From: a virus
Taxonomy: Duplodnaviria > Heunggongvirae > Uroviricota > Caudoviricetes
Strand: one strand, 5' to 3'
Length of the DNA: 49,536 bases
Virus record (IMG/VR): IMGVR_UViG_2534681701_000013
Coordinates: 1-49,536 of that record
Shown here: positions 1,689-47,518 of the stretch, in pieces
Numbering within the stretch: the stretch's first letter is position 1
Layout: the number at the start of each line of letters is the position of its first letter
The notes under the pieces: model-generated
What the model saw: the letters and a program-made list of their open reading frames with translations, nothing else
The model's database searches: none
What the model was told of the DNA's origin: nothing
Program-made: the position numbers and the translations under genes

Positions 1689-1907
1689 TCACAGTCCCCA
1701 TTGTTTGTTCTTAAGTTCGATCTCCTCCTGGCAACTTGCACAAGTCCGACAACCCTGAACAGCCAGGCGTCTTCGCTCATCTATCGGATCGCCACACTCA
1801 CAACAATGAGTTGCGGATACAGTCTGGTAGTTCAGACGACGCATTTTTATTGCTGTATTGCGCTGTAATTCTTCGATTTCTGATGCCGAATCAATGATGT
1901 CTGCCAT
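1689..1907 (-). CDS. TraR/DksA-family C4 zinc-finger protein (lambda Orf73-like)
   Basis: 72-aa ORF with CxxC...CxxC pattern (CCECGDPIDERRRLAVQGCRTCASC) characteristic of TraR/DksA zinc fingers. Confidence 0.8.
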   Translation of the reverse strand: MADIIDSASEIEELQRNTAIKMRRLNYQTVSATHCCECGDPIDERRRLAVQGCRTCASCQEEIELKNKQWGL

Positions 1908-2005
1908 CTTCCATTAATCCCTGAATTGTTGGTTAATACGCTTGAGGATGAATGCGAACAATAAAAAAGGAGCCTGTAGCTCCCTGATGATTTTGCTTTT
2001 CATGT

Positions 2006-3321: not shown

Positions 3322-4103
3322 GCTGCCACCTTCTGCTCAGTGGCTTTCTGTTTCAGGAATCCAAGAGCTTTCACTGCTTCGGCCTGTGTCAGTTCTGACG
3401 ATGCGCGAATGTCGCGGCGAAATATCTGGGAACAGAGCGGCAATAAGTCGTCATCCCATGTTTTATCCAAGGCGATCAGCAGAGTGTTAATCTCCTGCAT
3501 GGTTTCATCGTTAACCGGAGTGATGTCGCGTTCCGGCTGACGTTCTGTAGTGTATGCGGTATTTTCGACAATGCGCTCGGCTTCATCCTTGTCATAGATA
3601 CCAGCAAATCCGAAGGCGAGACGGGCACACTGAATCATGGCTTTATGCCGTAACATCCGTTTGGGATGCGACTGCCACGGGCCGGTGATTTCTCTGCCTT
3701 CGCGGGTTTTGAATGGTTCGCGTCGGCATTCATCCATCCACTCGGTAACGCAGATCGGATGATTACGGTCCTTGCGGTAAATCCGGCATGTACAGGATTC
3801 ATTGTCCTGCTCAAAGTCCATGCCATCAAACTGCTGGTTTTCATTGATGATGCGGGACCATCCATCAACGCCCACCACCGGAACGATGCCGTTCTGCTTA
3901 TCAGGGAAGGCGTAAATTTCTTTCGTCCACGGATTAAGGCCGTACTGGTTGGCGACGATCAACAATGCGATGAACTGCGCATCGCTGGCATCGCCTTTAA
4001 ATGCTGTCTGGCGAAGAGTGGTGATCAGTTCCTGTGGGTCGACAGAATCCATGCCGACACGTTCAGCCAGCTTCCCTGCCAGCGTTGCGAGTGCTGTACT
4101 CAT
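3318..4103 (-). CDS. bet: Single-strand annealing protein Bet (Red-beta, RecT family)
   Basis: 261-aa translation matches lambda Bet; 4-bp overlap with exo as in lambda. Confidence 0.95.
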
Positions 4104-4108
4104 CCGTT

Positions 4109-4405
4109 TTATACCTCTGAATCAATATCAACCTGATGGTGAGCAATGGTTTCAACCATGTACCGGATGTGTTCTGCCATGCGCTCCTGAAAGTCAACAT
4201 CGTCATCAAACGCACGGGTAATGGCTTTTTTGCTGGCCCCGTGGCGTTGCAAATGATCGATACATAGCGATTCAAACAGGTGCTGGTGCAGGCCTTTTTC
4301 CATGTCGTCTGCCAGTTCTGCCTCTTTCTCTTCACGGGCGATCTGCTGGTAGTGACGCGCCCAGCTCTGAGCCTCAAGACGATCCTGAATGTAATAAGCG
4401 TTCAT
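4109..4405 (-). CDS. gam: RecBCD inhibitor Gam (short form)
   Basis: 98-aa translation [21 protein letters not shown]... matches lambda GamS; AGGAG RBS upstream. Confidence 0.95.
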
Positions 4406-4479
4406 GGCTGAACTCCTGAAATAGCTGTGAAAATATCGCCCGCGAAATGCCGGGCTGATTAGGTAAACAGGAAAGGGGA

Positions 4480-4770
4480 TTAGTGATTCAGACCGTTGCC
4501 GCGCCCGTCGAGAAAAACTTCCACGAGCAAGTCGCGGGTATAAGTGCGCTCGATGCCGCGATGCAGATAAAGCCGTCCGCGTAAATTAGCTGATGCAGTC
4601 CAGGTACCATCTTTGTGTTTGACCAGCATTCCTGGCATGACCGCACCGCGATTAACGGTCTGCGTTCCGTAATGTTGATGAACCATAAAAACTCCTGCCC
4701 GTAAGCTGGGCTGCTGAACATATAGAGACTTCTGCGCGTATTCAGGCGGTGGATGGCCGCCGGTTGTCAT
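4480..4770 (-). CDS. Hypothetical protein (first ORF of the leftward operon; not N, Kil or CIII by sequence)
   Basis: 96-aa ORF with ATG and GAGG-like RBS; G/H/R-rich, no arginine-rich motif, no family recognised; could be non-coding. Confidence 0.35.
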
Positions 4771-4949
4771 AACTAAGCCGCCTCGTTGAAGCGACTGAGG
4801 TATGAGGTGTTGAGTTGAGTTGATTTCAGCTGGTCACACCGACGTTCACGCGTCCGTTTCACCCCTCGCACTCCCCGGAGCCTGCCGAAATTCAAGCTGC
4901 GGATCTAAGCGGTCATCGCAACGGTGAATCAGGTGGTTGCCGTATCGTT

Positions 4950-5030
4950 GTGTTGTTGCGACATGGTAATAATAGCTATTGCTATTGGCGGTATCAATAC
5001 TTATAGCTATTGATTGATGTGTTTTGATAT
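4950..5030. promoter_or_regulatory. Candidate leftward operator/promoter region (OL/pL analogue)
   Basis: Repeated CTATTG/TAGCTATTG elements and TATTG...CAATA inverted repeats; the same CTATTG/CAATA half-site motifs recur in the cI-cro intergenic region. Confidence 0.3.
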
Positions 5031-5129
5031 TAACTGTTTGATAGCAAAAAGAATTAATTTTGTGACTTGCATCGCATAGCGATAACTGAAGGGAGGTTGT
5101 GGTGGTTTTTTGAACGGTGTGTGATGAGG

Positions 5130-5162
5130 GGAGGCAAAAGAAAACCCGGCACGACGGCCGGG
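5130..5162 (-). terminator. Rho-independent terminator downstream of the 287-aa gene
   Basis: Stem CCCGGC (5145-5150) / GCCGGG (5157-5162) with 6-nt loop, followed on the minus strand by TTTTCTTTTG; sits immediately after the stop at 5167-5169. Confidence 0.6.
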
Positions 5163-5166
5163 GAAA

Positions 5167-6030
5167 TCATTTCGCATCTACAATAAATAACCTGTTTATC
5201 TGGCCTTTTTTAACAGTAGCCTTTGCGGTTATAGTGAATACTGCAGATGGATCACCTTTGGTTGATATATATGCACTAAGAGCTCTAATATACGGGTTAT
5301 TCTTCTTTCCTGCAGCTGGATCGCTAATTTCAGCAGTGATTCTCTTTTTTGAGTCATCACCATCTAAAATTATTTTAGCTGTCATATTTTGTGCATCAAA
5401 TTCTGTAAGAAAAGCACGATACTCACGAAGACCGAGAACTTCATCATCATCAAGCCTATCAATTTCAGCTTTATCTCTCTCGTTAACTTTTAGAAGGCAG
5501 CCGTCAACATTTGTTGCAACACTTATCTGATCGCAAGTATTACCAATAGGTGATACTGCCTGCCTTACAGAGGGGCGAAGCTCTACAGCCATTCGGTCAA
5601 TCAAAGAGATCAACTTATCAATGGTTCCAGCATCCTTGTTTCCTAGTGCCTCTATGGCCTTTTCAAGTGACTGCTGCAAAGCTTTCATTTCATCTTTCTT
5701 GTTAGAATTTCTCGCAAAAATATATTGTAGTATTGCGCCAAGTATAGTTGCGGCGATCCCCGAGAACAACTGGTTCTGAGTGGCGAAGTTAAGAACTGCT
5801 TCAAGAGTAAAGCAGTTAGCTTTTGCTTCGCGTGCGTAAACCTTAACTTCCTGATAATTAATGTATTTACTATATTTTTGTGTAACAGAGAAAGAAGCTG
5901 CTGTTGAGAGAACTTTAGAAAAACCCTTTAGGGATTCTCCTAGGCAGTTCAAATCTATTTCATGATTTAAAGCATCTTTTCCGTCATACCTAAGAGAGAT
6001 TTTTATATCCTGTAAAGCGTCACAATCCAT
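5167..6030 (-). CDS. Hypothetical 287-aa protein in the rexAB slot (candidate superinfection-exclusion / abortive-infection gene)
   Basis: ORF with ATG start, co-oriented with and 66 bp downstream of the repressor gene; visibly AT-rich compared with its neighbours; one hydrophobic segment ([18 protein letters not shown]); no motif of any family I recognise; own terminator. Confidence 0.75.
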
Positions 6031-6096
6031 AAATCGCTCTCGTCTAATTCTAATTAAATTTACTATCCCCTAAACGACTCATCAGCACAGTACTGA

Positions 6097-6789
6097 TTAT
6101 CCATGTTTCCTGTACGTTTGGGGCATGCTCCCAATAACCTTACCGAAGATGAACACCCGGTTCATCTCGTCTTTCTCGATCGGGTCCCACGGTGAGTAGC
6201 TCTTGTTATCAGAGATAACCAGCAGCTTATCCTTCATCATTTGCAGGCGCTTTACATGGGCGGTGTCGTCGTACAGAAACGCATAGATGCCATCACCGTC
6301 GAAAGATTTAACCGTGATATCAACGAACAGCAGATCACCTGGTTCGATCGTTCCTGACATGCTGTCACCACGCACGTTAATGATGCGGATATTTTCTGCC
6401 TTCCTACCATCGAACATGTGACGAGCATCGTCAAACGAGTACTCAACCGAGCGTAGAACTTCTACAAACTCACGGTTGATGACTCCCGGCCCGGCACTCA
6501 CTTCTATATCAAGAACGTCAATCTTGAAGTATTTGGGATGGTTGGCAGTAGGCTTCCCTAATTGTTGACCGTCATTTCTCATCGGGCCTATGCCTGATGA
6601 GAGCCACTCTGTTCGAACACCCAATGCATTAGCTATTTCAACAATTTTTGTTGAGCCGCGCGCGTTGCCGCTTGTCAGTCTCCAGATTGTGGGTTGAGCT
6701 ACGCCAGACGCCTTTGCAAGAGCGCCTTGAGACATTCCAGATTGTTCCATCGCTAGGTTTAAGCGATCAGCAAGAGTTTCTTTTTTCAT
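6097..6789 (-). CDS. Phage repressor (CI analogue): N-terminal HTH, C-terminal LexA-like S24 autopeptidase
   Basis: HTH segment MSQGALAKASGVAQPTIWRL; C-terminal GDSM serine motif (VRGDSMSGTIEPGDLLFVD) and downstream lysine as in LexA/CI; track ORF extends to 6825 but ATG at 6787-6789 (MKKETLADRL...) is the likely start. Confidence 0.88.
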   Translation of the reverse strand: MKKETLADRLNLAMEQSGMSQGALAKASGVAQPTIWRLTSGNARGSTKIVEIANALGVRTEWLSSGIGPMRNDGQQLGKPTANHPKYFKIDVLDIEVSAGPGVINREFVEVLRSVEYSFDDARHMFDGRKAENIRIINVRGDSMSGTIEPGDLLFVDITVKSFDGDGIYAFLYDDTAHVKRLQMMKDKLLVISDNKSYSPWDPIEKDEMNRVFIFGKVIGSMPQTYRKHG

Positions 6790-6899
6790 AAGTTTTAATT
6801 TATACGCTTGCGTATTGATGGTCAAAACACGTTTTGCTATTGTTATGATTAATACGCATTGCTATTATTTATTCGTTGCAATACCAATAGGAATTGATA
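6790..6899. promoter_or_regulatory. Divergent repressor/cro control region (OR, pRM/pR analogue)
   Basis: 110-bp AT-rich gap between divergent repressor and cro-like genes; inverted repeat TACGCTTGCGTA and repeated TTGCTATTG/CAATA motifs. Confidence 0.5.
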
Positions 6900-7127
6900 A
6901 TGACAAATCAAACCATTCAACTCGCAATCAGTATTACAGGTAGTCAAAAACGACTGGCAGATCTATGCGGTGTAGCCCAACCCACTGTTTGGCGTTGGCT
7001 ACACGGTGGCGGAATTGATGCCCGCTATGTAATGAAAATTGTCTCAGCCACTGGTGGAAAGATTAAACCAGCAGATATTCGTCCCGACCTCGCACCATTG
7101 TTTAACGCGAGTAATTCTGCCGCCTAA
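6900..7127 (+). CDS. Cro-like HTH regulator
   Basis: Small ORF divergent from the repressor; HTH-like QKRLADLCGVAQPTVWRW; ATG at 6900 with AGGA RBS (track start 6894 is a TTG two codons upstream). Confidence 0.8.
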   Translation: MTNQTIQLAISITGSQKRLADLCGVAQPTVWRWLHGGGIDARYVMKIVSATGGKIKPADIRPDLAPLFNASNSAA

Positions 7128-7151
7128 ACTGCGGCGTTAACTGATAAGGCA

Positions 7152-7697
7152 ATGACTATGCAACCACTTACATACCAACAGACTAGCGGATTTAGCCCGA
7201 CTGCGGTGATAAATCGTTCTCAAACAAAACAAGCTCCAGGCCACGAAAAAATCCGTGATGCCGTCCGCGCCTGGTCGGCTGCAGATAATCAGGATGTTGT
7301 TGCCGCACTCATTGTGAATGAGTATCGGGAGCAGGGCGGCGGCACCATCGATTTCCCTGATGATGTCAGCCGTGCACGCCAGAAGCTGTTCCGCTTCCTC
7401 GATAACAAATTCGATTCTGAAAAATACCGAAATAACGTGCGTGAACTGACCCCGGCAATTCTGGCGGTACTACCGCTGGAATATCGCGGTTACCTGGTTG
7501 AGCAGGATAGCTTTATGGCTAGGTTGGCTGAAATGGAAAAGGAACTCAGTGAGGCAAAACAGGCTGTCATTCTCAACGCACCACGCCACCAGAAACTGAA
7601 GGAGATGAGTGAAGGCATTGTGTCGATGTTTCGAGTGGACCCGGATCTGGCTGGTCCATTGATGGCGATGGTCACCACCATGCTGGGGGCAATATGA
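7152..7697 (+). CDS. Regulatory protein in the cII position (possibly YdaT/CII-like); function uncertain
   Basis: 181-aa ORF starting 24 bp after the cro-like gene; not lambda CII by sequence. Confidence 0.55.
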   Translation: MTMQPLTYQQTSGFSPTAVINRSQTKQAPGHEKIRDAVRAWSAADNQDVVAALIVNEYREQGGGTIDFPDDVSRARQKLFRFLDNKFDSEKYRNNVRELTPAILAVLPLEYRGYLVEQDSFMARLAEMEKELSEAKQAVILNAPRHQKLKEMSEGIVSMFRVDPDLAGPLMAMVTTMLGAI

Positions 7698-7702
7698 CAG
7701 GT

Positions 7703-7745
7703 TCAAAAATGGCGAAAGTCGGTCTGCGGGAACAGAACCGACTTT
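7703..7745 (-). terminator. Rho-independent terminator reading leftward (oop-like)
   Basis: 12-bp stem AAAGTCGGTCTG / CAGAACCGACTTT (one bulge), 6-nt loop, followed on the minus strand by CGCCATTTTTG. Confidence 0.55.
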
Positions 7746-7774
7746 CAGGTGCAAATCGTAACACACTCATTGCG
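7703..7774 (-). ncRNA. Candidate oop-like antisense RNA (about 70 nt)
   Basis: Minus-strand sigma70-like promoter at the start of O (-35 TTGAAT = plus 7804-7809, 17-nt spacer, -10 CATAAT = plus 7781-7786) facing the terminator above; same architecture as lambda pO/oop. Confidence 0.4.
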
Positions 7775-7783
7775 GGAGGAATT

Positions 7784-8713
7784 ATGGCAAACACTGCTAA
7801 GATATTCAATTTTCCAGTGCCGGATGCGGCACAAAAGGAGCCGCGTGTGGCAGATCTCGATGATGGTTATACGCGCATTGCAAATGAGTTGCTGGAAGCT
7901 GTGATGCTGGCCGGATTAACACAGCACCAGCTTCTGGTCTTCCTGGCTGTCATGCGCAAAACATATGGCTTTAATAAAAAACTGGATTGGGTGAGCAACG
8001 AGCAACTTTCCGAGTTGACCGGGATATTGCCGCACAAGTGTTCTGCTGCAAAAAGTGTTCTGGTAAAGCGTGGGATTTTTATTCAGAGCGGGCGGAATAC
8101 CGGCATTAATAATGTGGTCAGTGAATGGTCAACATTACCCGAATCAGGTAAGAAAAATAAAGTTTACCTGAAAGAGGTAAATTTACCTGAATCAGGTAAA
8201 AAAAGTTTACCCAAATCAGGTAAAGGCGTTTACCCGAATCAGGTAAACACAAAAGACAAACTAACAAAAGACAATATAAAACCTTTTTCGTCCGAGAATT
8301 CTGGCGAATCCTCTGACCAACCAGAAAACGATCTTCCTGTGGTGAAACCGGATGCTGCAATTCAGAGCGGCAGCAAGTGGGGGACAGCAGAAGACCTGAC
8401 CGCCGCAGAGTGGATGTTTGACATGGTGAAGACCATCGCGCCATCAGCCAGAAAACCGAATTTTGCAGGGTGGGCTAACGATATCCGCCTGATGCGTGAA
8501 CGTGACGGACGTAACCACCGCGACATGTGCGTGCTGTTCCGCTGGGCATGCCAGGACAACTTCTGGTCCGGTAACGTGCTAAGTCCGGCCAAACTCCGCG
8601 ACAAGTGGACCCAGCTCGAAATCAACCGAAACAAGCAACAGGCTGGCGTGACAGCCGGCAAACCAAAACTCGACCTGACGAACACTGACTGGATTTACGG
8701 GGTGGAGCTATGA
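7784..8713 (+). CDS. O: Replication initiator O
   Basis: N-terminus MANTAKIFNFPVP...ADLDDGY and C-terminus resemble lambda O; contains iterons; ATG at 7784 with GGGAGGA RBS (track ORF starts upstream at 7694). Confidence 0.9.
   Translation: MANTAKIFNFPVPDAAQKEPRVADLDDGYTRIANELLEAVMLAGLTQHQLLVFLAVMRKTYGFNKKLDWVSNEQLSELTGILPHKCSAAKSVLVKRGIFIQSGRNTGINNVVSEWSTLPESGKKNKVYLKEVNLPESGKKSLPKSGKGVYPNQVNTKDKLTKDNIKPFSSENSGESSDQPENDLPVVKPDAAIQSGSKWGTAEDLTAAEWMFDMVKTIAPSARKPNFAGWANDIRLMRERDGRNHRDMCVLFRWACQDNFWSGNVLSPAKLRDKWTQLEINRNKQQAGVTAGKPKLDLTNTDWIYGVEL
8135..8248. repeat. Replication origin iterons inside O (ori-lambda-like)
   Basis: Four to five direct copies of about 18 bp (TTACCCGAATCAGGTAA-like) followed by an AT-rich stretch at 8249-8285. 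Confidence 0.8.
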
Positions 8714-9411
8714 AAAACATCGCCGCACAGATGGTTAACTTTGACTGTGAGCAGATGCGCCGGATCGCCAACAACATGCCGGAACAGTACGACGAAAAGC
8801 CACAGGTACAGCAGGTAGCGCAGATCATCAACGGTGTGTTCAGCCAGTTACTGGCAACTTTCCCGGCGAGCCTGGCTAACCGTGACCAGAATGAACTGAA
8901 CGAAATCCGCCGCCAGTGGGTTCTGGCTTTCCGGGAAAACGGGATCACCACAATGGAACAGGTTAACGCTGGAATGCGCGTAGCCCGTCGGCAGAATCGA
9001 CCATTCCTGCCATCACCCGGGCAGTTTGTCGCCTGGTGCCGGGAAGAAGCATCTGTTAACGCCGGGCTGCCAAACGTCAGCGAGCTGGTTGATATGGTTT
9101 ACGAGTATTGCCGGAAGCGTGGCCTGTATCCGGATGCAGAGTCTTATCCGTGGAAATCGAACGCGCATTACTGGTTGGTTACCAACTTGTACCAGAACAT
9201 GCGGGCCAATGCGCTGACTGACGCGGAATTACGGCGCAAGGCTGCCGATGAACTGTCCTGTATGACCGCGCGAATTAACCGTGGTGAGGCGATACCTGAA
9301 CCAGTAAAACAACTTCCTGTCATGGGCGGTAGACCTCTAAATCGTGCACAGGCTCTGGCGAAGATCGCAGAAATCAAAGCTAAGTTCGGACTGAAAGGAT
9401 CAAGTGTATGA
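8710..9411 (+). CDS. P: Replication protein P (DnaB helicase loader)
   Basis: 233-aa translation matches lambda P almost throughout; ATGA overlap with the O stop. Confidence 0.95.
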   Translation: MKNIAAQMVNFDCEQMRRIANNMPEQYDEKPQVQQVAQIINGVFSQLLATFPASLANRDQNELNEIRRQWVLAFRENGITTMEQVNAGMRVARRQNRPFLPSPGQFVAWCREEASVNAGLPNVSELVDMVYEYCRKRGLYPDAESYPWKSNAHYWLVTNLYQNMRANALTDAELRRKAADELSCMTARINRGEAIPEPVKQLPVMGGRPLNRAQALAKIAEIKAKFGLKGSSV

Positions 9412-9710
9412 CGGGCAAAGAGGCAATTATTCATTACCTGGGGACGCATAAGAGCTTCTGTGCACAGGACGTTGCCGCGGTAACAGGTGCAACCGTAACC
9501 AGCATAAATCAGGCTGCGGCTAAAATGGCGCGGGCAGGAATCCTGGTCGTTGATGGTAAGGTCTGGCGAACGGTGTATTACCGGTTCGCTACCAGAGAAG
9601 AACGGGAAGGAAAGGTGAGCACGAATCTGATTTTTAAGGAGTGTCGCCAGAGTGCCGCGATGAAACGGGTACTGAGGGTATATAAAAGAACATCAATGGG
9701 AACACAATGA
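9408..9710 (+). CDS. ren: Ren (Rex exclusion relief protein)
   Basis: Translation MTGKEAIIHYLGTHKSFCAQDVAAVTGATVTSINQAAAKMARAG... matches lambda Ren. Confidence 0.9.
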   Translation: MTGKEAIIHYLGTHKSFCAQDVAAVTGATVTSINQAAAKMARAGILVVDGKVWRTVYYRFATREEREGKVSTNLIFKECRQSAAMKRVLRVYKRTSMGTQ

Positions 9711-9727
9711 TGAAACAGGTGAGTTGA

Positions 9728-9762
9728 GTTCAAACTGTAGTACAATTCTCTCCAGTTTGAAC
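9728..9762. other. Perfect 10-bp inverted repeat immediately upstream of the emrE RBS
   Basis: GTTCAAACTG (9728-9737), 15-nt loop, CAGTTTGAAC (9753-9762); no T-run follows. Confidence 0.5.
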
Positions 9763-9777
9763 AGGAAAGAATATGCT

Positions 9778-10110
9778 ATGAACCCTTATATTTATCTTGG
9801 TGGTGCAATACTTGCAGAGGTCATTGGTACAACCTTAATGAAGTTTTCAGAAGGTTTTACACGGTTATGGCCATCTGTTGGTACAATTATTTGTTATTGT
9901 GCATCATTCTGGTTATTAGCTCAGACGCTGGCTTATATTCCTACAGGGATTGCTTATGGTATCTGGTCAGGAGTCGGTATTGTCCTGATTAGCTTACTGT
10001 CATGGGGATTTTTCGGCCAACGGCTGGACCTGCCAGCCATTATAGGCATGATGTTGCTTTGTGCCGGTGTGTTGGTTATTAATTTATTGTCACGAAGCAC
10101 ACCACATTAA
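9778..10110 (+). CDS. emrE: SMR-family multidrug efflux transporter EmrE
   Basis: 110-aa translation MNPYIYLGGAILAEVIGTTLMKFSEGF... matches E. coli EmrE; ATG at 9778 with AGGA RBS (track ORF starts at 9724). Confidence 0.9.
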   Translation: MNPYIYLGGAILAEVIGTTLMKFSEGFTRLWPSVGTIICYCASFWLLAQTLAYIPTGIAYGIWSGVGIVLISLLSWGFFGQRLDLPAIIGMMLLCAGVLVINLLSRSTPH

Positions 10111-10364
10111 AATAATTTGTTTCTAAACGACTAAAATATGGAGGTTCTTATATTTATATGAGCCTCGTTTTATGCTTTTTGTTAATGTCTTTATTTTTTA
10201 TGTATTCTTTTGTACTTTCAAGATTATGGCGTAAGAAAATTGCAATACGATTATTGTTGTATATTCAAGATAATGTGACCTTAATTGTCTTTTTAAATAA
10301 AAATTAAACAAAAATTATATCCCACCACTAAGGTTTATAAAAGCATACGTTAGCAGGTGTCACC

Positions 10365-11891
10365 ATGAAAAAAGCCATAGCATATATGCGATTTTCATCA
10401 CCAGGTCAGATGTCTGGCGACTCATTAAACCGACAGAGAAGACTTATTGCTGAATGGTTAAAGGTAAATAGTGATTATTATCTTGATACCATAACATATG
10501 AAGATTTAGGATTAAGTGCATTCAAAGGAAAGCATGCACAATCAGGAGCTTTTTCGGAATTTTTAGATGCTATAGAGCATGGTTATATATTGCCAGGAAC
10601 TACATTGTTAGTTGAAAGTCTGGACAGACTTTCAAGAGAAAAAGTCGGTGAAGCGATTGAACGTCTGAAATTGATTTTGAATCACGGTATTGATGTTATA
10701 ACTCTTTGCGACAATACAGTCTATAATATTGACTCTTTGAATGAGCCATATTCATTAATAAAAGCCATACTTATAGCACAAAGGGCAAATGAAGAAAGCG
10801 AGATAAAGTCAAGTCGGGTTAAATTATCATGGAAGAAAAAACGGCAGGATGCACTGGAATCAGGTACGATTATGACGGCGTCTTGTCCGAGATGGCTCTC
10901 CTTAGATGACAAAAGAACGGCTTTTGTTCCAGACCCCGACAGGGTGAAAACTATTGAGCTAATTTTTAAACTCAGGATGGAAAGGCGCTCATTGAATGCA
11001 ATAGCCAAGTATTTAAATGATCATGCTGTAAAGAATTTCTCAGGAAAAGAAAGTGTATGGGGACCTTCTGTAATTGAAAAATTATTAGCGAATAAAGCTC
11101 TGATAGGTATATGCGTACCTTCATATCGTGCAAGAGGGAAAGGGATAAGTGAAATCGCTGGCTATTATCCCAGAGTCATATCAGATGATTTGTTTTACGC
11201 TGTACAGGAAATTCGGTTGGCACCTTTTGGTATTAGCAATAGTAGCAAGAATCCTATGCTAATAAATCTACTTCGAACAGTTATGAAGTGTGAGGCTTGT
11301 GGTAATACCATGATTGTTCATGCGGTATCTGGAAGTTTGCATGGCTATTATGTTTGTCCGATGAGAAGATTACATCGATGTGACAGGCCATCAATAAAAA
11401 GAGATTTGGTTGATTATAATATCATTAATGAATTGCTTTTTAATTGTAGCAAAATTCAACCAGTTGAAAACAAGAAAGATGCTAATGAAACTTTAGAGTT
11501 AAAAATTATTGAGCTTCAGATGAAAATTAATAATTTAATCGTTGCATTGTCTGTCGCGCCTGAAGTTACCGCTATAGCAGAGAAAATAAGACTATTAGAT
11601 AAGGAATTACGAAGGGCTTCGGTATCATTGAAAACTTTGAAGAGTAAAGGTGTAAATTCATTCAGTGATTTTTATGCTATTGACTTAACCAGTAAAAATG
11701 GACGAGAGTTATGCCGTACACTTGCCTATAAAACATTCGAAAAAATCATAATTAATACGGATAATAAAACCTGTGATATCTATTTTATGAATGGCATTGT
11801 TTTTAAACACTATCCTTTAATGAAAGTAATATCCGCCCAGCAGGCGATAAGTGCTCTCAAATATATGGTTGATGGTGAGATTTATTTCTAA
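10365..11891 (+). CDS. ybcK: Large serine recombinase (DLP12 YbcK-like)
   Basis: 508 aa; N-terminal resolvase-type motif AYMRFSSPGQ, central recombinase region, cysteine cluster CEACGNT...YYVCPMRRLHRCD (zinc ribbon); AT-rich. Confidence 0.9.
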   Translation: MKKAIAYMRFSSPGQMSGDSLNRQRRLIAEWLKVNSDYYLDTITYEDLGLSAFKGKHAQSGAFSEFLDAIEHGYILPGTTLLVESLDRLSREKVGEAIERLKLILNHGIDVITLCDNTVYNIDSLNEPYSLIKAILIAQRANEESEIKSSRVKLSWKKKRQDALESGTIMTASCPRWLSLDDKRTAFVPDPDRVKTIELIFKLRMERRSLNAIAKYLNDHAVKNFSGKESVWGPSVIEKLLANKALIGICVPSYRARGKGISEIAGYYPRVISDDLFYAVQEIRLAPFGISNSSKNPMLINLLRTVMKCEACGNTMIVHAVSGSLHGYYVCPMRRLHRCDRPSIKRDLVDYNIINELLFNCSKIQPVENKKDANETLELKIIELQMKINNLIVALSVAPEVTAIAEKIRLLDKELRRASVSLKTLKSKGVNSFSDFYAIDLTSKNGRELCRTLAYKTFEKIIINTDNKTCDIYFMNGIVFKHYPLMKVISAQQAISALKYMVDGEIYF

Positions 11892-12355
11892 ATAATGATC
11901 TCGGATTTTAAGTTATGCTATGGTGATAAAGTGCAAGACAGAATTAATTATCTTTGACGAAACTTAATGGGTAATTACTTTGTTTGCTCCCACAAGCGAG
12001 TTTTGTACGGCTGTATTGGGGTAGTAAATGAGCTATACAATCTTAATCATTTGTTAGGTGAGAACTCTTGGTCGCAGATTCAAATACTGAAAATACGTGA
12101 CAAATTATTATGAGCAAAATGGTGTATGTCACGTATTTTGAATGGTAGGTTAAAAAATAACACCGACTTTCGTAGGTATTACTAATAATAAAGCAGAGTT
12201 TTTAGATAGTATCAATGTGCTTTGTGTATATTGTGGCAAATAATTGGGTTGGGGGTACAATTGTGATTGCTTTTGCATGAACATTGCGCCTTTATGCATA
12301 ATGAGATAAAGGAATATCAAATAAAATAACGATAGGTCATAACAAAGAGGTTTTT

Positions 12356-12823
12356 ATGAAAACACTTATCGTTTCAACTGTATTGGCATTCATAACATTT
12401 TCTGCGCAGGCTGCAGCATTTCAGGTCACTAGTAATGAAATAAAAACAGGAGAGCAACTTACAACGTCTCATGTCTTTTCTGGATTTGGGTGTGAAGGTG
12501 GTAATACATCGCCCTCATTAACCTGGTCTGGTGTTCCTGAAGGTACCAAAAGCTTTGCCGTAACTGTATATGATCCAGATGCACCTACAGGCAGTGGTTG
12601 GTGGCATTGGACTGTTGTTAATATTCCAGCAACAGTAACATATTTGCCCGTTGATGCAGGGAGACGTGATGGAACAAAACTGCCGACTGGTGCTGTTCAA
12701 GGCCGAAATGATTTTGGCTATGCTGGGTTTGGTGGCGCATGTCCTCCTAAAGGAGATAAACCACATCATTACCAGTTTAAAGTATGGGCTCTAAAAACTG
12801 AAAAGATTCCTGTAGATTCTTAG
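12356..12823 (+). pseudogene. ybcL: ybcL (periplasmic PEBP/RKIP-family protein), 5' part, interrupted by IS2 after codon 155
   Basis: Signal peptide MKTLIVSTVLAFITFSAQA then PEBP-like sequence; reading frame runs into the IS2 end at 12821. Confidence 0.85.
12816..12820. repeat. IS2 target-site duplication, left copy (ATTCT)
   Basis: 5-bp ATTCT directly abutting the IS2 left end; identical copy at 14152-14156. Confidence 0.85.
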
Positions 12824-12911
12824 ACTGCCCCCCTGAATCTCCAGACAACCAGTATCACTTAAATAAGTGATAGTCTTAATACTAGTTTTTAGACTAGTCA
12901 TTGGAGAACAG

Positions 12912-13277
12912 ATGATTGATGTCTTAGGGCCGGAGAAACGCAGACGGCGTACCACACAGGAAAAGATCGCAATTGTTCAGCAGAGCTTTGAACCGGGGAT
13001 GACGGTCTCCCTCGTTGCCCGGCAACATGGTGTAGCAGCCAGCCAGTTATTTCTCTGGCGTAAGCAATACCAGGAAGGAAGTCTTACTGCTGTCGCCGCC
13101 GGAGAACAGGTTGTTCCTGCCTCTGAACTTGCTGCCGCCATGAAGCAGATTAAAGAACTCCAGCGCCTGCTCGGCAAGAAAACGATGGAAAATGAACTCC
13201 TCAAAGAAGCCGTTGAATATGGACGGGCAAAAAAGTGGATAGCGCACGCGCCCTTATTGCCCGGGGATGGGGAGTAA
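12912..13277 (+). CDS. insC: IS2 OrfA (InsC, HTH transposase subunit)
   Basis: [26 protein letters not shown]... matches IS2 InsC. Confidence 0.9.
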
Positions 13278-14140
13278 GCTTAGTCAGCCGTTGTCTCCGG
13301 GTGTCGCGTGCGCAGTTGCACGTCATTCTCAGACGAACCGATGACTGGATGGATGGCCGCCGCAGTCGTCACACTGATGATACGGATGTGCTTCTCCGTA
13401 TACACCATGTTATCGGAGAGCTGCCCACGTATGGTTATCGTCGGGTATGGGCGCTGCTTCGCAGACAGGCAGAACTTGATGGTATGCCTGCGATCAATGC
13501 CAAACGTGTTTACCGGATCATGCGCCAGAATGCGCTGTTGCTTGAGCGAAAACCTGCTGTACCGCCATCGAAACGGGCACATACAGGCAGAGTGGCCGTG
13601 AAAGAAAGCAATCAGCGATGGTGCTCTGACGGGTTCGAGTTCTGCTGTGATAACGGAGAGAGACTGCGTGTCACGTTCGCGCTGGACTGCTGTGATCGTG
13701 AGGCACTGCACTGGGCGGTCACTACCGGCGGCTTCAACAGTGAAACAGTACAGGACGTCATGCTGGGAGCGGTGGAACGCCGCTTCGGCAACGATCTTCC
13801 GTCGTCTCCAGTGGAGTGGCTGACGGATAATGGTTCATGCTACCGGGCTAATGAAACACGCCAGTTCGCCCGGATGTTGGGACTTGAACCGAAGAACACG
13901 GCGGTGCGGAGTCCGGAGAGTAACGGAATAGCAGAGAGCTTCGTGAAAACGATAAAGCGTGACTACATCAGTATCATGCCCAAACCAGACGGGTTAACGG
14001 CAGCAAAGAACCTTGCAGAGGCGTTCGAGCATTATAACGAATGGCATCCGCATAGTGCGCTGGGTTATCGCTCGCCACGGGAATATCTGCGGCAGCGGGC
14101 TTGTAATGGGTTAAGTGATAACAGATGTCTGGAAATATAG
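13235..14140 (+). CDS. insD: IS2 OrfB (InsD, DDE transposase; expressed as OrfAB by -1 frameshift)
   Basis: 301-aa ORF overlapping insC; translation matches IS2 InsD. Confidence 0.9.
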
Positions 14141-14151
14141 GGGGAAATCCA

Positions 14152-14156
14152 ATTCT
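14152..14156. repeat. IS2 target-site duplication, right copy (ATTCT)
   Basis: Identical to 12816-12820. Confidence 0.85.
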
Positions 14157-14243
14157 AACTCCAGCGGAGCGTTAGTTGGTTATATGCTTAATGCTAATAA
14201 AATCGCAACCGCTGAGATAACACCAGTTTATGAGATAAAGTAG
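14157..14243 (+). pseudogene. ybcL: ybcL 3' fragment displaced by IS2
   Basis: In frame with the 5' part once IS2 and one ATTCT copy are removed: NSSGALVGYMLNANKIATAEITPVYEIK then stop, giving a 183-aa product. Confidence 0.8.
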
Positions 14244-14252
14244 GGTGAGAGT

Positions 14253-15050
14253 ATGCTGGCAAGAGGTAAGACTAACTTAAAGATCGAAGAAATACGGATG
14301 CATAAACATCATGAGATTCATAGGGTTAAGCCTCTTATGCCAGCTTTGTGTCGTATCCGTCAGGGAAAGAAAGTTATCAATTGGGAGACGCATACTTTAA
14401 CTGTTGATAATAATCAAATAATATTATTTCCTTGTGGTTATGAATTTTATATTGAGAATTATCCTGAAGCAGGGCTTTATCTTGCAGAAATGCTTTACTT
14501 ACCCATTGATTTAATTGAGAGTTTCCAAAAACTTTATACGGTAACTGATCAAATACGTAACAAAACAAGTTTCTTTTTACCTCAGAATCCTGAGTTAATA
14601 TATTGTTGGGAGCAACTAAAAACATCTGTTTCCCGAGGCTTCTCAACTAAAATTCAGGAGCACTTAGCAATGGGCGTTCTACTTTCGTTAGGAGTGAATC
14701 ATGTTAATCATTTACTTTTATCATATAGTAAACAATCATTGATAAGTCGTTGTTATAACCTGCTGCTATCCGAACCCGGCACAAAATGGACAGCAAACAA
14801 GGTTGCTCGATATCTCTACATTTCTGTTTCTACATTACATCGCCGTCTAGCAAGCGAGGGGGTAAGTTTCCAAAGTATACTGGACGATGTGAGGTTAAAT
14901 AATGCGTTGTCTGCTATACAAACGACGGTAAAACCTATAAGCGAGATTGCCAGAGAAAATGGTTATAAGTGTCCTTCTCGTTTTACTGAAAGATTTCATA
15001 ATCGTTTTAATATAACACCAAGAGAGATAAGAAAAGCTTCCAGAGAGTAA
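14253..15050 (+). CDS. ybcM: AraC-family transcriptional regulator (DLP12 YbcM-like)
   Basis: 265 aa; C-terminal AraC-type HTH region ([21 protein letters not shown]...[20 protein letters not shown]); AT-rich. Confidence 0.85.
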
Positions 15051-15114
15051 AAGTGTTTTAAGAAGGAGCAATTCTATCGATTTTGATTTTGGGAAATCAA
15101 CACGGCATAATTAT

Positions 15115-15143
15115 GTCACCGGAGCCTGAACAACTCCGGTGAC
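15115..15143. other. Perfect 10-bp stem hairpin between ybcM and ybcN
   Basis: GTCACCGGAG, 9-nt loop, CTCCGGTGAC; no adjacent T-run. Confidence 0.5.
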
Positions 15144-15264
15144 TTCTGCGCTAAACGGGGACGTTTATGCGCACATACAATCCAAACTCTCTTCTCCCTT
15201 CACAGATGCAGAAATGCACCTGCAATTCTTTGCATCTAGCGTTTGACCTCTGCGGAGGTGAAGC

Positions 15265-15720
15265 GTGAACCTCTCACAAGACGGCATCAAATTACATCGC
15301 GGCAACTTCACCGCTATCGGTCGGCAGATCCAGCCTTATCTGGAGGAGGGCAAATGCTTTCGCATGGTGCTTAAACCGTGGCGTGAGAAACGCAGTCTTT
15401 CCCAGAATGCACTCAGCCACATGTGGTACAGCGAAATCAGTGAATACCTCATCAGCAGGGGTAAAACGTTCGCCACTCCAGCTTGGGTAAAAGATGCTCT
15501 CAAACACACATATCTCGGTTATGAAACCAAAGACCTGGTTGATGTCGTAACCGGTGATATCACCACTATCCAGTCGTTACGCCATACCTCCGACCTTGAT
15601 ACCGGAGAGATGTATGTCTTCCTGTGTAAGGTTGAAGCCTGGGCGATGAATATTGGCTGCCACCTGACTATTCCGCAGAGCTGCGAGTTCCAGCTGCTGC
15701 GTGATAAGCAGGAGGCGTAA
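15265..15720 (+). CDS. ybcN: NinB-like recombination protein (DLP12 YbcN)
   Basis: 151 aa, GTG start with GGAGGTG RBS; translation recognised as YbcN/NinB family. Confidence 0.85.
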
Positions 15721-15890
15721 TGGCTACACCGCTTATTCGTGTCATGAACGGACACATCTACAAAGTACCAAATCGTCGTAAGCGTAAGCCTGAGCTGAAA
15801 CCATCCGAAATACCAACACTGCTCGGATATACCGCCAGCCTGGTTGATAAAAAATGGTTGCGACTGGCAGCAAGGAGGAATCATGGCTGA
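15720..15890 (+). CDS. ninE: NinE
   Basis: 56-aa ORF not in the track (<60 aa): [56 protein letters not shown]; start overlaps the ybcN stop (TAATG). Confidence 0.75.
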   Translation: MATPLIRVMNGHIYKVPNRRKRKPELKPSEIPTLLGYTASLVDKKWLRLAARRNHG

Positions 15891-16173
15891 TTTGAGAAAA
15901 GCAGCGCGTGGTCGGGAATGCCAGGTAAGAATCCCTGGCGTATGTAATGGCAATCCTGAAACGTCTGTACTGGCACATATCCGGCTGGCTGGATTGTGCG
16001 GTACCGGTATCAAACCGCCAGACCTGATTGCCACCATTGCATGTTCTGCCTGTCACGACGAGATCGACCGTCGCACGCATTTTGTTGACGCTGGATATGC
16101 AAAAGAATGCGCGCTGGAAGGTATGGCGAGAACGCAGGTTATCTGGCTGAAAGAGGGGGTAATTAAGGCGTGA
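15883..16173 (+). CDS. ybcO: YbcO (nin-region putative nuclease, cysteine-rich)
   Basis: 96 aa from [29 protein letters not shown]...; ATG overlaps the ninE 3' end. Confidence 0.85.
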
Positions 16174-16532
16174 ATACCTACAATATCACATTACCCTGGC
16201 CGCCGAGCAATAATCGCTATTACCGCCATAATCGCGGGCGCACGCACATCAGCGCAGAGGGGCAGGCATACCGCGAAAACGTCGCCCGAATCATTAAAAA
16301 CGCAATGCTGGATATCGGCCTGGCTATGCCTGTGAAAATCCGCATTGAGTGTCACATGCCGGATCGCCGTCGCCGTGACCTGGATAATCTACAAAAGGCC
16401 GCTTTTGACGCACTCACCAAAGCAGGTTTCTGGCTGGATGATGCTCAGGTCGTTGATTACCGCGTTGTGAAGATGCCGGTTGTCAAAGGTGGAAAGCTGG
16501 AACTGACCATCACTGAACAGGGAGATGAATGA
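16170..16532 (+). CDS. rusA: Holliday-junction resolvase RusA
   Basis: 120-aa translation [24 protein letters not shown]... matches RusA; GTG start overlapping the ybcO stop. Confidence 0.95.
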
Positions 16533-16669
16533 TGTTTGAGTTTTATATGGCAGAACTTCTTCGCCACCGCTGGATGCGCCTGCGCTTATATCGTTTCCCC
16601 GGTTCTGTTTTGACCGATTACCGAATACTGAAGAATTACGCCAAAACACTGACAGGAGCAGGAGTATGA
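16529..16669 (+). CDS. ylcG: YlcG small protein
   Basis: 46-aa [49 protein letters not shown] overlapping the rusA stop; below track size cutoff. Confidence 0.6.
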
Positions 16670-16754
16670 AGTCAGAGATAACAATCAACTAATACTGTTT
16701 TGTTGATTTTTGCTTGTAATTGGCGTTCTGGTCTGAGTTTTGTGGAGTAAGTTG

Positions 16755-17138
16755 ATGCGTGATATTCAGATGGTTCTTGAGCGTTGGGGAGCGTGGGCGG
16801 CTAATAATCATGAAGATGTGACCTGGTCGTCCATTGCCGCCGGTTTTAAGGGATTAATTCCTTCAAAAGTAAAATCTCGCCCACAATGTTGTGACGATGA
16901 CGCGATGATCATTTGCGGGTGCATGGCCCGTCTGAAAAAGAACAACAGCGATTTGCATGATTTATTAGTAGATTATTATGTAGTCGGTATGACATTCATG
17001 TCACTGGCAGGTAAGCATTGCTGCTCTGATGGTTATATCGGGAAAAGGTTACAGAAGGCTGAGGGCATAATTGAAGGGATGTTAATGGCATTAGATATCC
17101 GGTTAGAGATGGATATCGTTGTTAATAACTCTAATTAA
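16755..17138 (+). CDS. quuD: Late-gene antiterminator Q (DLP12 QuuD-type)
   Basis: 127 aa from [22 protein letters not shown]...; cysteine-rich centre; last gene before the lysis/late region. Confidence 0.85.
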
Positions 17139-46934: not shown

Positions 46935-47518
46935 TGGCATTCAGAATGAGTGAACAACCACGGGCCATAAAAATTTATAATCTGCTGGCCGGAACTAATG
47001 AATTTATTGGTGAAGGTGATGCATATATTCCGCCTCATACAGGTCTGCCAGCAAACAGTACCGATATTGCACCGCCAGATATTCCGGCTGGCTTCGTGGC
47101 TGTTTTCAACAGTGATGAGTCATCGTGGCATCTCGTTGAAGATCATCGGGGTAAAACGGTTTATGACGTGGCTTCCGGCGACGCGTTATTTATTTCTGAA
47201 CTCGGTCCGTTACCGGAAAATGTTACCTGGTTATCGCCGGAAGGGGAGTTTCAGAAGTGGAACGGCACAGCCTGGGTGAAGGATACGGAAGCAGAAAAAC
47301 TGTTCCGGATCCGGGAGGCGGAAGAAACAAAAAACAACCTGATGCAGGTAGCCAGTGAGCATATTGCGCCGCTTCAGGATGCTGCAGATCTGGAAATTGC
47401 AACGGAGGAAGAAATCTCGTTGCTGGAAGCATGGAAAAAGTATCGGGTATTGCTGAACCGTGTTGATACATCAACTGCACCTGATATTGAGTGGCCTACG
47501 AACCCTGTCAGGGAGTAA
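46934..47518 (+). CDS. tfa: Tail fibre assembly chaperone Tfa
   Basis: 194-aa translation [24 protein letters not shown]... matches lambda Tfa. Confidence 0.95.

Follow-up and report, generated by a model that had tools for sequence, protein, structure and literature searches.

The window analyzed here, the whole stretch of 49,536 nucleotides, contains a complete DLP12-type lambdoid prophage of E. coli, located at argU and adjoining tRNA-Arg. Its nearest phage relatives are 4A7 and Perceval of the genus Bievrevirus, with an early left arm that is 96-97% identical. The genes are arranged in the order intD, xis, exo, bet, gam, kil, immunity region, O, P and ren, followed by the emrE-ybcK morons, the nin genes, quuD, the lysis genes and lambda-like head and tail genes. 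Beyond the late genes lie appY/ompT/envY/nfrA. The immunity genes are of the cI-like/YdaS/YdaT type. The leftward operon runs from PL through an untranslated leader into kil, gam, bet and exo and onward to xis/int. The features of the early region are as follows.

1967 to 1985, minus strand: strong site resembling an intrinsic terminator within the leftward operon, preceding a traR-like gene, DUF4222, xis and int
2580 to 2558, minus strand: further predicted leftward terminator-like site
4109 to 4405, minus strand: gam (98 aa; Pfam Gam, E=1e-63), with bet and exo downstream
4438 to 4455, minus strand: predicted weak terminator-like hairpin between kil and gam, in DNA common to lambda
4480 to 4686, minus strand: kil, KilR-type FtsZ inhibitor of 68 aa (profile matches), with the Shine-Dalgarno sequence AGGAG at ~4697-4693
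4745 to 4804, minus strand: conserved two-hairpin element, consisting of CATACC, hairpin hp1 (4795-4777), UUAUGACAACC and hairpin hp2 (GGCGG-CCAUCCA-CCGCC, 4761-4745)
4773 to 4895, minus strand: Arg-rich 40-aa ORF (MNFGRLRGVRGVKRTRERRCDQ...), judged to be non-coding and a by-product of the G+C-rich helices of element X
4806 to 4819, minus strand: C-rich, G-poor linker with CAACT repeats, at the place where relatives have genes and an intrinsic terminator
4820 to 4914, minus strand: element X, a two-domain structured RNA of 95 nt, +49 to +143 of the PL transcript
4915 to 4962, minus strand: 5' leader hairpin P0 (UCGCAAC...GUUGCGA), C-rich and abutting X, from sequence and alignment
4969 to 4997, minus strand: predicted PL (TTGATA-17-TATTAT; 10/12 consensus matches), start near 4962
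4970 to 5011: OL operator repeats of 17-nt units with inverted arms at 4971-4987 and 4995-5011
5145 to 5162, minus strand: predicted terminator for the transcription unit of the cI-moron (rex position), closely upstream of PL
6900 to 7127 and 7152 or 7158 to 7697, plus strand: cro (YdaS-type) and the cII analogue (YdaT-type) of a compact, phi80-like right operon

Several further loci were noted in the window. The gene in rex position (5167-6030, minus strand) encodes a 287-aa DUF7946+DUF7947 protein. In relatives this position is occupied by a SIR2 protein (L013), an ASCH-domain protein (4A7) or a transmembrane protein (Perceval), and it has the appearance of a variable site for morons or defence genes. 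The distal end of the leftward operon, behind the strong terminator-like site at 1985..1967, holds the gene for a 72-aa zinc-finger protein of the TraR/DksA family (1689-1907, minus strand). A moron block composed of emrE, ylcJ, ybcK, ybcL and ybcM (9724-13700, plus strand) is located between ren and the nin genes. A Rho-dependent terminator, tybcK, is documented in the ybcK leader of DLP12 (PMC4150792). Unless suppressed, it would stop readthrough from PR to Q. Outside the prophage, near envY/ompT, lies a full-length match to the Rfam IS009 RNA (47277-47475, plus strand; 223.6 bits).

PL overlaps operator repeats that recur at OR: the sequence TAATAGCTATTGCTATT at 4970 is found again at 6850, which pairs OL 4970-4986 with OR 6850-6866. 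From the predicted start at ~4962 to the ATG of kil, the leader comprises ~276 nt. The initial annotation had described about 360 bp of non-coding DNA with operator-like repeats in front of a 96-aa ORF; the repeats and the non-coding character hold, the length has to be corrected to the ~276 nt of the untranslated stretch. The first part of the leader, hairpin P0, is replaced by other sequence in some immunity types.

The 96-aa ORF (4480..4770, minus strand) is present and, as described initially, lacks an arginine-rich motif. It is not an orphan. The protein is a Kil/KilR homologue, matching PHROG_294 over its full length (residues 1-68, E=1.3e-37) and NCBIfam PRK11354 over model positions 1-70 of 73 (E=1.8e-17), the latter with 63 bits and thus under the curated cut-off of 92 bits of that model. 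RefSeq/PGAP annotates kil with 68 aa from the ATG at 4686, preceded by AGGAG. In 97 unique relatives, polymorphism in these 68 codons occurs almost wholly at third positions, and the 28-codon N-terminal extension carries frameshifting deletions of 1 nt and 2 nt. The nucleotides of the extension are conserved in phi80 and HK639, but in other reading frames. From the third-position polymorphism, the frameshifted extension and the conservation in other frames it follows that the leader of ~276 nt between PL and kil is untranslated. By these profile matches the product of the 96-aa ORF is Kil, which rules it out as an N analogue. Nor is it the only ORF in this region, as had been stated; a 40-aa ORF starting with TTG and containing KRTRERR, judged to be non-coding, was overlooked. 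A second open frame of 77 aa (4488-4721, minus strand) overlaps kil in a different reading frame.

No N family was matched in the prophage by protein-family profile searches, and stop codons interrupt the sole Arg-rich ORF in diverged homologues. No Arg-rich N-like protein is found just downstream of PL. For boxA, 7 matches were obtained in the whole window against 5.5 expected, none of them in the PL or PR leader, and boxA plus boxB in both transcripts, as in lambda, was not found. PL leader and PR operon have no repeat of 11 nt or more in common and share only a 10-mer at chance level. The initial claim that N and nut sites are missing is thereby borne out, including for boxA- and nut-like sequences in both early leaders.

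A second line of evidence for this claim had been the tight junction of 24 bp between cro, which ends at 7127, and the next gene. The junction itself is confirmed (24 bp, or 30 bp with the PGAP start), and the next gene is the YdaT-type cII. However, phi80, for which N and nutL but no nutR are annotated, has an identical cro-cII junction of 30 bp, so the junction says nothing about N. The right operon consists of cro, ydaT-cII, O, P and ren without intergenic room, and no plus-strand terminator-like site was predicted between 6868 and 14462. Because of this compact layout and the lack of a predicted intrinsic terminator, the rightward operon would need no antitermination signal for the replication genes.

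For the detection of put RNAs we used a covariance model (R1) built from seven putL sequences and the putR of HK022. It recovered all putL sequences at 89-100 bits and three putR sequences not used for training at 45-48 bits. In the early region (4000-17000), scanned with filters off, the best score was 10.7 bits; in the whole window no score was higher than 11.6 bits. A put-like RNA in the strict sense, suggested initially as a possible source of antitermination, is therefore not found: true put sites reach 45-100 bits, the early region no more than 10.7. Rfam 15 revealed nothing relevant, neither with gathering thresholds on the window nor with E<=10 on 4300-5200, where the only notable match was a sub-threshold ALIL that is the reverse complement of the two-hairpin element. 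Rfam 15 has no put family, and the putL region of HK639 (L005 5050-5320) likewise gives no match. Taken together, within the reach of sequence tests, these results support an early region of phi80 type that lacks N, nut and put.

The central part of the leader is formed by element X. Its strands GACCGCUUAGA, GAGUGCGAGGGGUG and GUGACCA are nearly invariant, while the stems and loops of two hairpins vary and covary. The family can be described as GACCGCUUAGA...GAGUGCGAG(G)GGUG...GUGACCA with two covarying hairpins, located directly after a PL-type promoter, and the copy in the window fits this description. It scores 121 bits with the covariance model of X (R2) and is the only copy in the window. 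The PR operon yielded no further copy with R2, and each locus has a single one. In domain 1, a CGC/GCG closing helix encloses a long hairpin, and in domain 2 a GGU/ACC helix encloses the second one. RNAalifold analysis of 26 close variants gave these two domains with 4 compensatory pairs. Among 17 distinct sequences from diverged prophages, both partners have changed in a compensatory manner at 15 of the 22 base pairs, a count inflated by the fact that this alignment (A5) was fitted to the model. In the same sequences, 95% of the cells pair, compared with 28-42% when the partners are slid by 1-3 columns, and the covariation score is 0.52 compared with at most 0.09. When folded individually, four diverged members adopt this same architecture. 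By folding energy, the sequences do not stand out from shuffled ones (z from +0.1 to -1.4), and these energies are uninformative as evidence of structure. The hairpin loops differ between the types (CGUGAA, UGAGAG and AAUGGAGA). Judged by its covariation, X is a real structured RNA.

The leader containing X is found in 2231 of 5426 complete E. coli genomes (~41%). Within E. coli, X follows at least three different PL/operator types, and at least six in all. X is also present in prophages of other genera. Scans of public collections revealed type-2 and type-3 X in Enterobacter-type prophages, and about 10 further diverged types were found in prophages of 42-64% GC via the bipartite motif GACCGCTTAGA...GAGTGCGAG. 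In metagenomes, a first search pattern gave nothing and a second one returned type-2 and type-3 copies only. Locus L163, which matched R2 with 15 bits, was treated as a chance match and rejected as a member. Where the context was examined, X follows a strong PL-like promoter just downstream of a cI-type repressor gene, and no conserved ORF accompanies it. Like P0 in the window, a hairpin AUCGAG...CUCGAU abuts the 5' end of X in many distant members (e.g., L198 5337-5362), the 3' strand ending in CGAU in both cases; type-2 and type-3 X have no such hairpin. X is absent from Rfam 15, which says little about its novelty because Rfam lacks put as well. No description of X was found in the literature covered by our search, to which King 2011 (HK639) did not belong. 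By its distribution behind different promoters, X is a portable cassette.

The window type departs from the other types in the stretch that separates X from the two-hairpin element. The two-hairpin element consists of CATACC, hp1 (GTCGCTTC-AAC-GAGGCGGC), TTAGTTATGACAACC and hp2 (GGCGG-CCATCCA-CCGCC). The stem of hp1 covaries across loci and is found in six or more compensating versions. The two-hairpin element directly follows the T-run of an intrinsic terminator (tL1A in phi80) in over 30 further prophage loci of Enterobacteriaceae, and all type-2 and type-3 loci from which the element could be extracted have such a T-run in front of it. The T-run is absent only in the type of the window (type 1), which has lost the genes and the terminator of tL1A type that elsewhere separate X from the element; here the C-rich linker joins the two directly. 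The tract 4835-4795 is rich in C and poor in G, with a C/G ratio of 5-7.5 (98.5th percentile). A 5-nt insertion of a CAACT repeat (4819-4823, minus strand) is seen in only 6 of 97 unique relatives and separates the 40-aa ORF from the kil frame here. In HK639, hp2 and a U-run are annotated as a terminator; hp2 of the window has no U-tract. The stretch 4406-4486 is 97.5% identical to lambda.

Comparison of related phages revealed that X occupies the position of known antitermination signals. In otherwise homologous operons, a slot with identical flanks is filled by putL in HK639, by a boxA-containing segment in ENT1 and by X in the loci L151, L154 and L189. In the alignment of HK639 putL, ENT1 boxA and L151 X, the left flank ends in ...GCCAGCGGCG and the right flank is UUUACCAGCAGCUCUUUGCGAGGGGCUGACGG. 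In L151, both flanks match those of HK639 putL and the centre matches the family of the window; L154 has 91-92% identity with HK639 and ENT1 downstream of the cassette. In CobraSix the left flank alone, the PL-proximal part of the leader, is shared, and putL follows it. phi80 and HK225 share the PL-proximal leader, followed by a boxA-type nutL. X, put and boxA-nut are mutually exclusive in every locus examined, and model scans detected neither put in loci with X nor X in loci with put or nut. The equivalence of X with putL and nutL is guilt by position, as the slot could take any function of a PL leader. The genes downstream of X vary and include kil, a 63-aa ORF, a 208-aa ORF and a homologue of HK639_45. 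Terminators are found downstream of X in relatives; in L189, where the operators are of HK022 type, X is followed by two strong intrinsic terminators before kil-gam-recT is reached. Signals on the left side only are usual in this group of phages: CobraSix carries putL, and no putR was detectable within 4 kb to the right of PL, and for phi80 only nutL is annotated.

Since X fills the exact slot of putL and nutL in related phages, it is a strong candidate for an antiterminator RNA of a second kind. From its anatomy, its conservation and covariation, the equivalence of the slot and the terminators in relatives, we infer that X is probably, though by a narrow measure of confidence, a cis-acting element which modifies elongation in the PL operon, either autonomously or with the help of factors. 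The nascent X RNA would fold just after promoter escape, and the folded RNA would make the PL elongation complex, possibly by contact with RNA polymerase, resistant to downstream terminators. It may act alone, as put does, or together with host factors or unrecognised phage factors. The narrower proposal, that X represents a second class of nascent-RNA antiterminator, unrelated to put and without a dedicated phage protein, is more tentative and should be taken as one possibility. The initial annotation offered three options, namely N-independent early transcription, an RNA element or an unrecognised protein; of these, the RNA element gains support by the finding of X in the putL/nutL slot.

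The main rival is that the operon has no need for antitermination and that X serves another function of the leader. X could govern the stability or the processing of the kil-operon mRNA as an RNase III or RNase E site, act as a protein-binding riboregulator, or cause promoter-proximal pausing or attenuation. Under the same reading, the C-rich untranslated leader could invite Rho-dependent silencing of the toxic kil in lysogens. X is indeed less obviously needed in the window because the tL1A-type terminator is missing downstream of it and the nearest leftward site, 4455..4438, is weak. Stronger leftward terminator-like sites remain beyond it at 2580 and 1985. The right operon is free of predicted plus-strand terminators up to 14.4 kb, the tract 4835-4795 is C-rich and G-poor, and Rho-dependent silencing is documented for rac kil, as is the tybcK terminator of DLP12 (PMC4150792). 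Against this stand the precise exchange of X with two known antitermination signals and the strong terminators downstream of X in relatives. Gene-specific translational control by X is also unlikely, as the downstream genes differ between phages. Overall, another leader function appears unlikely, but it is the alternative that has to be taken most seriously.

It is less probable still that X is a nut-like recruitment site that depends on a protein partner instead of acting on RNA polymerase by itself; the partner would be host Nus factors or a phage protein that is encoded at another place and has escaped recognition. The conserved 5' motif GACCGCUUAGA, which is single-stranded, and the hairpin after it bear a loose resemblance to boxA and boxB. 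N proteins can escape detection by HMMs; in phi80, the protein annotated as N belongs to a PHROG without assigned function. However, X contains no boxA consensus and its hairpin loops are not conserved between types. No common ORF adjoins X, with type 1 having none between PL and kil, and stop codons break up the Arg-rich ORF in types 2 and 3.

That this Arg-rich 40-aa ORF encodes a miniature N-like peptide is very improbable. The ORF has possible starts at TTG 4895 or GTG 4862 (MKRTRERRCDQ...). The arginine-rich motif of lambda N is TRRRERR, to which KRTRERR of the ORF is similar. A Shine-Dalgarno-like GGGGAG is located 8 nt ahead of GTG 4862, and this codon is ATG in 14 of 97 variants. However, the frame is closed by UGA after 3 codons in type-2 X and by UAA after 1 codon in type-3 X, while the pairing of the RNA is kept in both, and a 5-nt CAACT indel rewrites the C-terminus in 91 of 97 unique relatives. 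In phage genomes and 5.8 billion proteins, the only homologues were 3 fusion ORFs caused by prophage deletions, and the PR operon has no partner hairpin. The ORF is ruled out as an N analogue by the stops in diverged homologues, the C-terminal indel and the dearth of homologues; on this comparative evidence it is not a gene, and the reading as a small N is already contradicted. A diverged member of the HK022 put family in the PL leader can practically be discounted. X matches put in position and two-stem-loop layout, but the R1 scores of the early region are far below those of true put sites and no conserved put residues align.

As a cis-acting element that would modify elongation, X can be compared with three known systems. 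HK022-type put RNAs act in cis without phage proteins, via the zinc-binding domain of the beta' subunit, and are a key model for the control of elongation by nascent RNA. To our knowledge, no RNA other than put has been described in lambdoid phages that alone confers terminator resistance on bacterial RNA polymerase. The put RNAs of HK022 and HK639 (putL and putR) have been described as cis-acting antiterminator RNAs which bind RNA polymerase (PMC9378689). Like put, X is promoter-proximal in the PL transcript, is shorter than 100 nt, consists of two stem-loop domains and has no evident phage protein beside it; it also occupies the identical cassette slot with the same flanks, with terminators downstream in relatives. 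Unlike put, X is found at PL only and never at PR, and its antitermination is proposed. X has no similarity to put in sequence or in covariance models, and its conserved motifs (GACCGCUUAGA, GAGUGCGAGGGGUG and GUGACCA) differ.

The second system is the lambda-type N/nut system as found in phi80, which has N and a nutL with boxA and core. X is located in the same slot of the PL leader as the boxA segment of phi80, HK225 and ENT1, and the right operon has the 30-bp cro-cII junction of phi80. In contrast to N/nut systems, the prophage has no conserved N-like ORF, no boxA and no pair of nutL and nutR. The third system is the kilR region of Rac. Kil is a homologue of KilR, kil lies downstream of a leftward early promoter, and the immunity genes are of the cI-like/YdaS/YdaT type in both. 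We know of no N gene in Rac. The kil gene of Rac is silenced by Rho-dependent termination, with the Rho terminator located within racR (PMC4150792), in which respect Rac differs from the window.

Should X turn out to serve a different function, it would still be an abundant and well-supported family of RNAs that is absent from Rfam. If X acts as an antiterminator, a second, unrelated RNA in the same slot as put would be an independent solution for structural and mechanistic comparison, and one with a much wider distribution than put. It would also account for the expression of the recombination, excision and kil genes in the very common N-less prophages of E. coli, a group of the DLP12, 4A7 and Perceval types which includes prophages of EHEC and AIEC strains.
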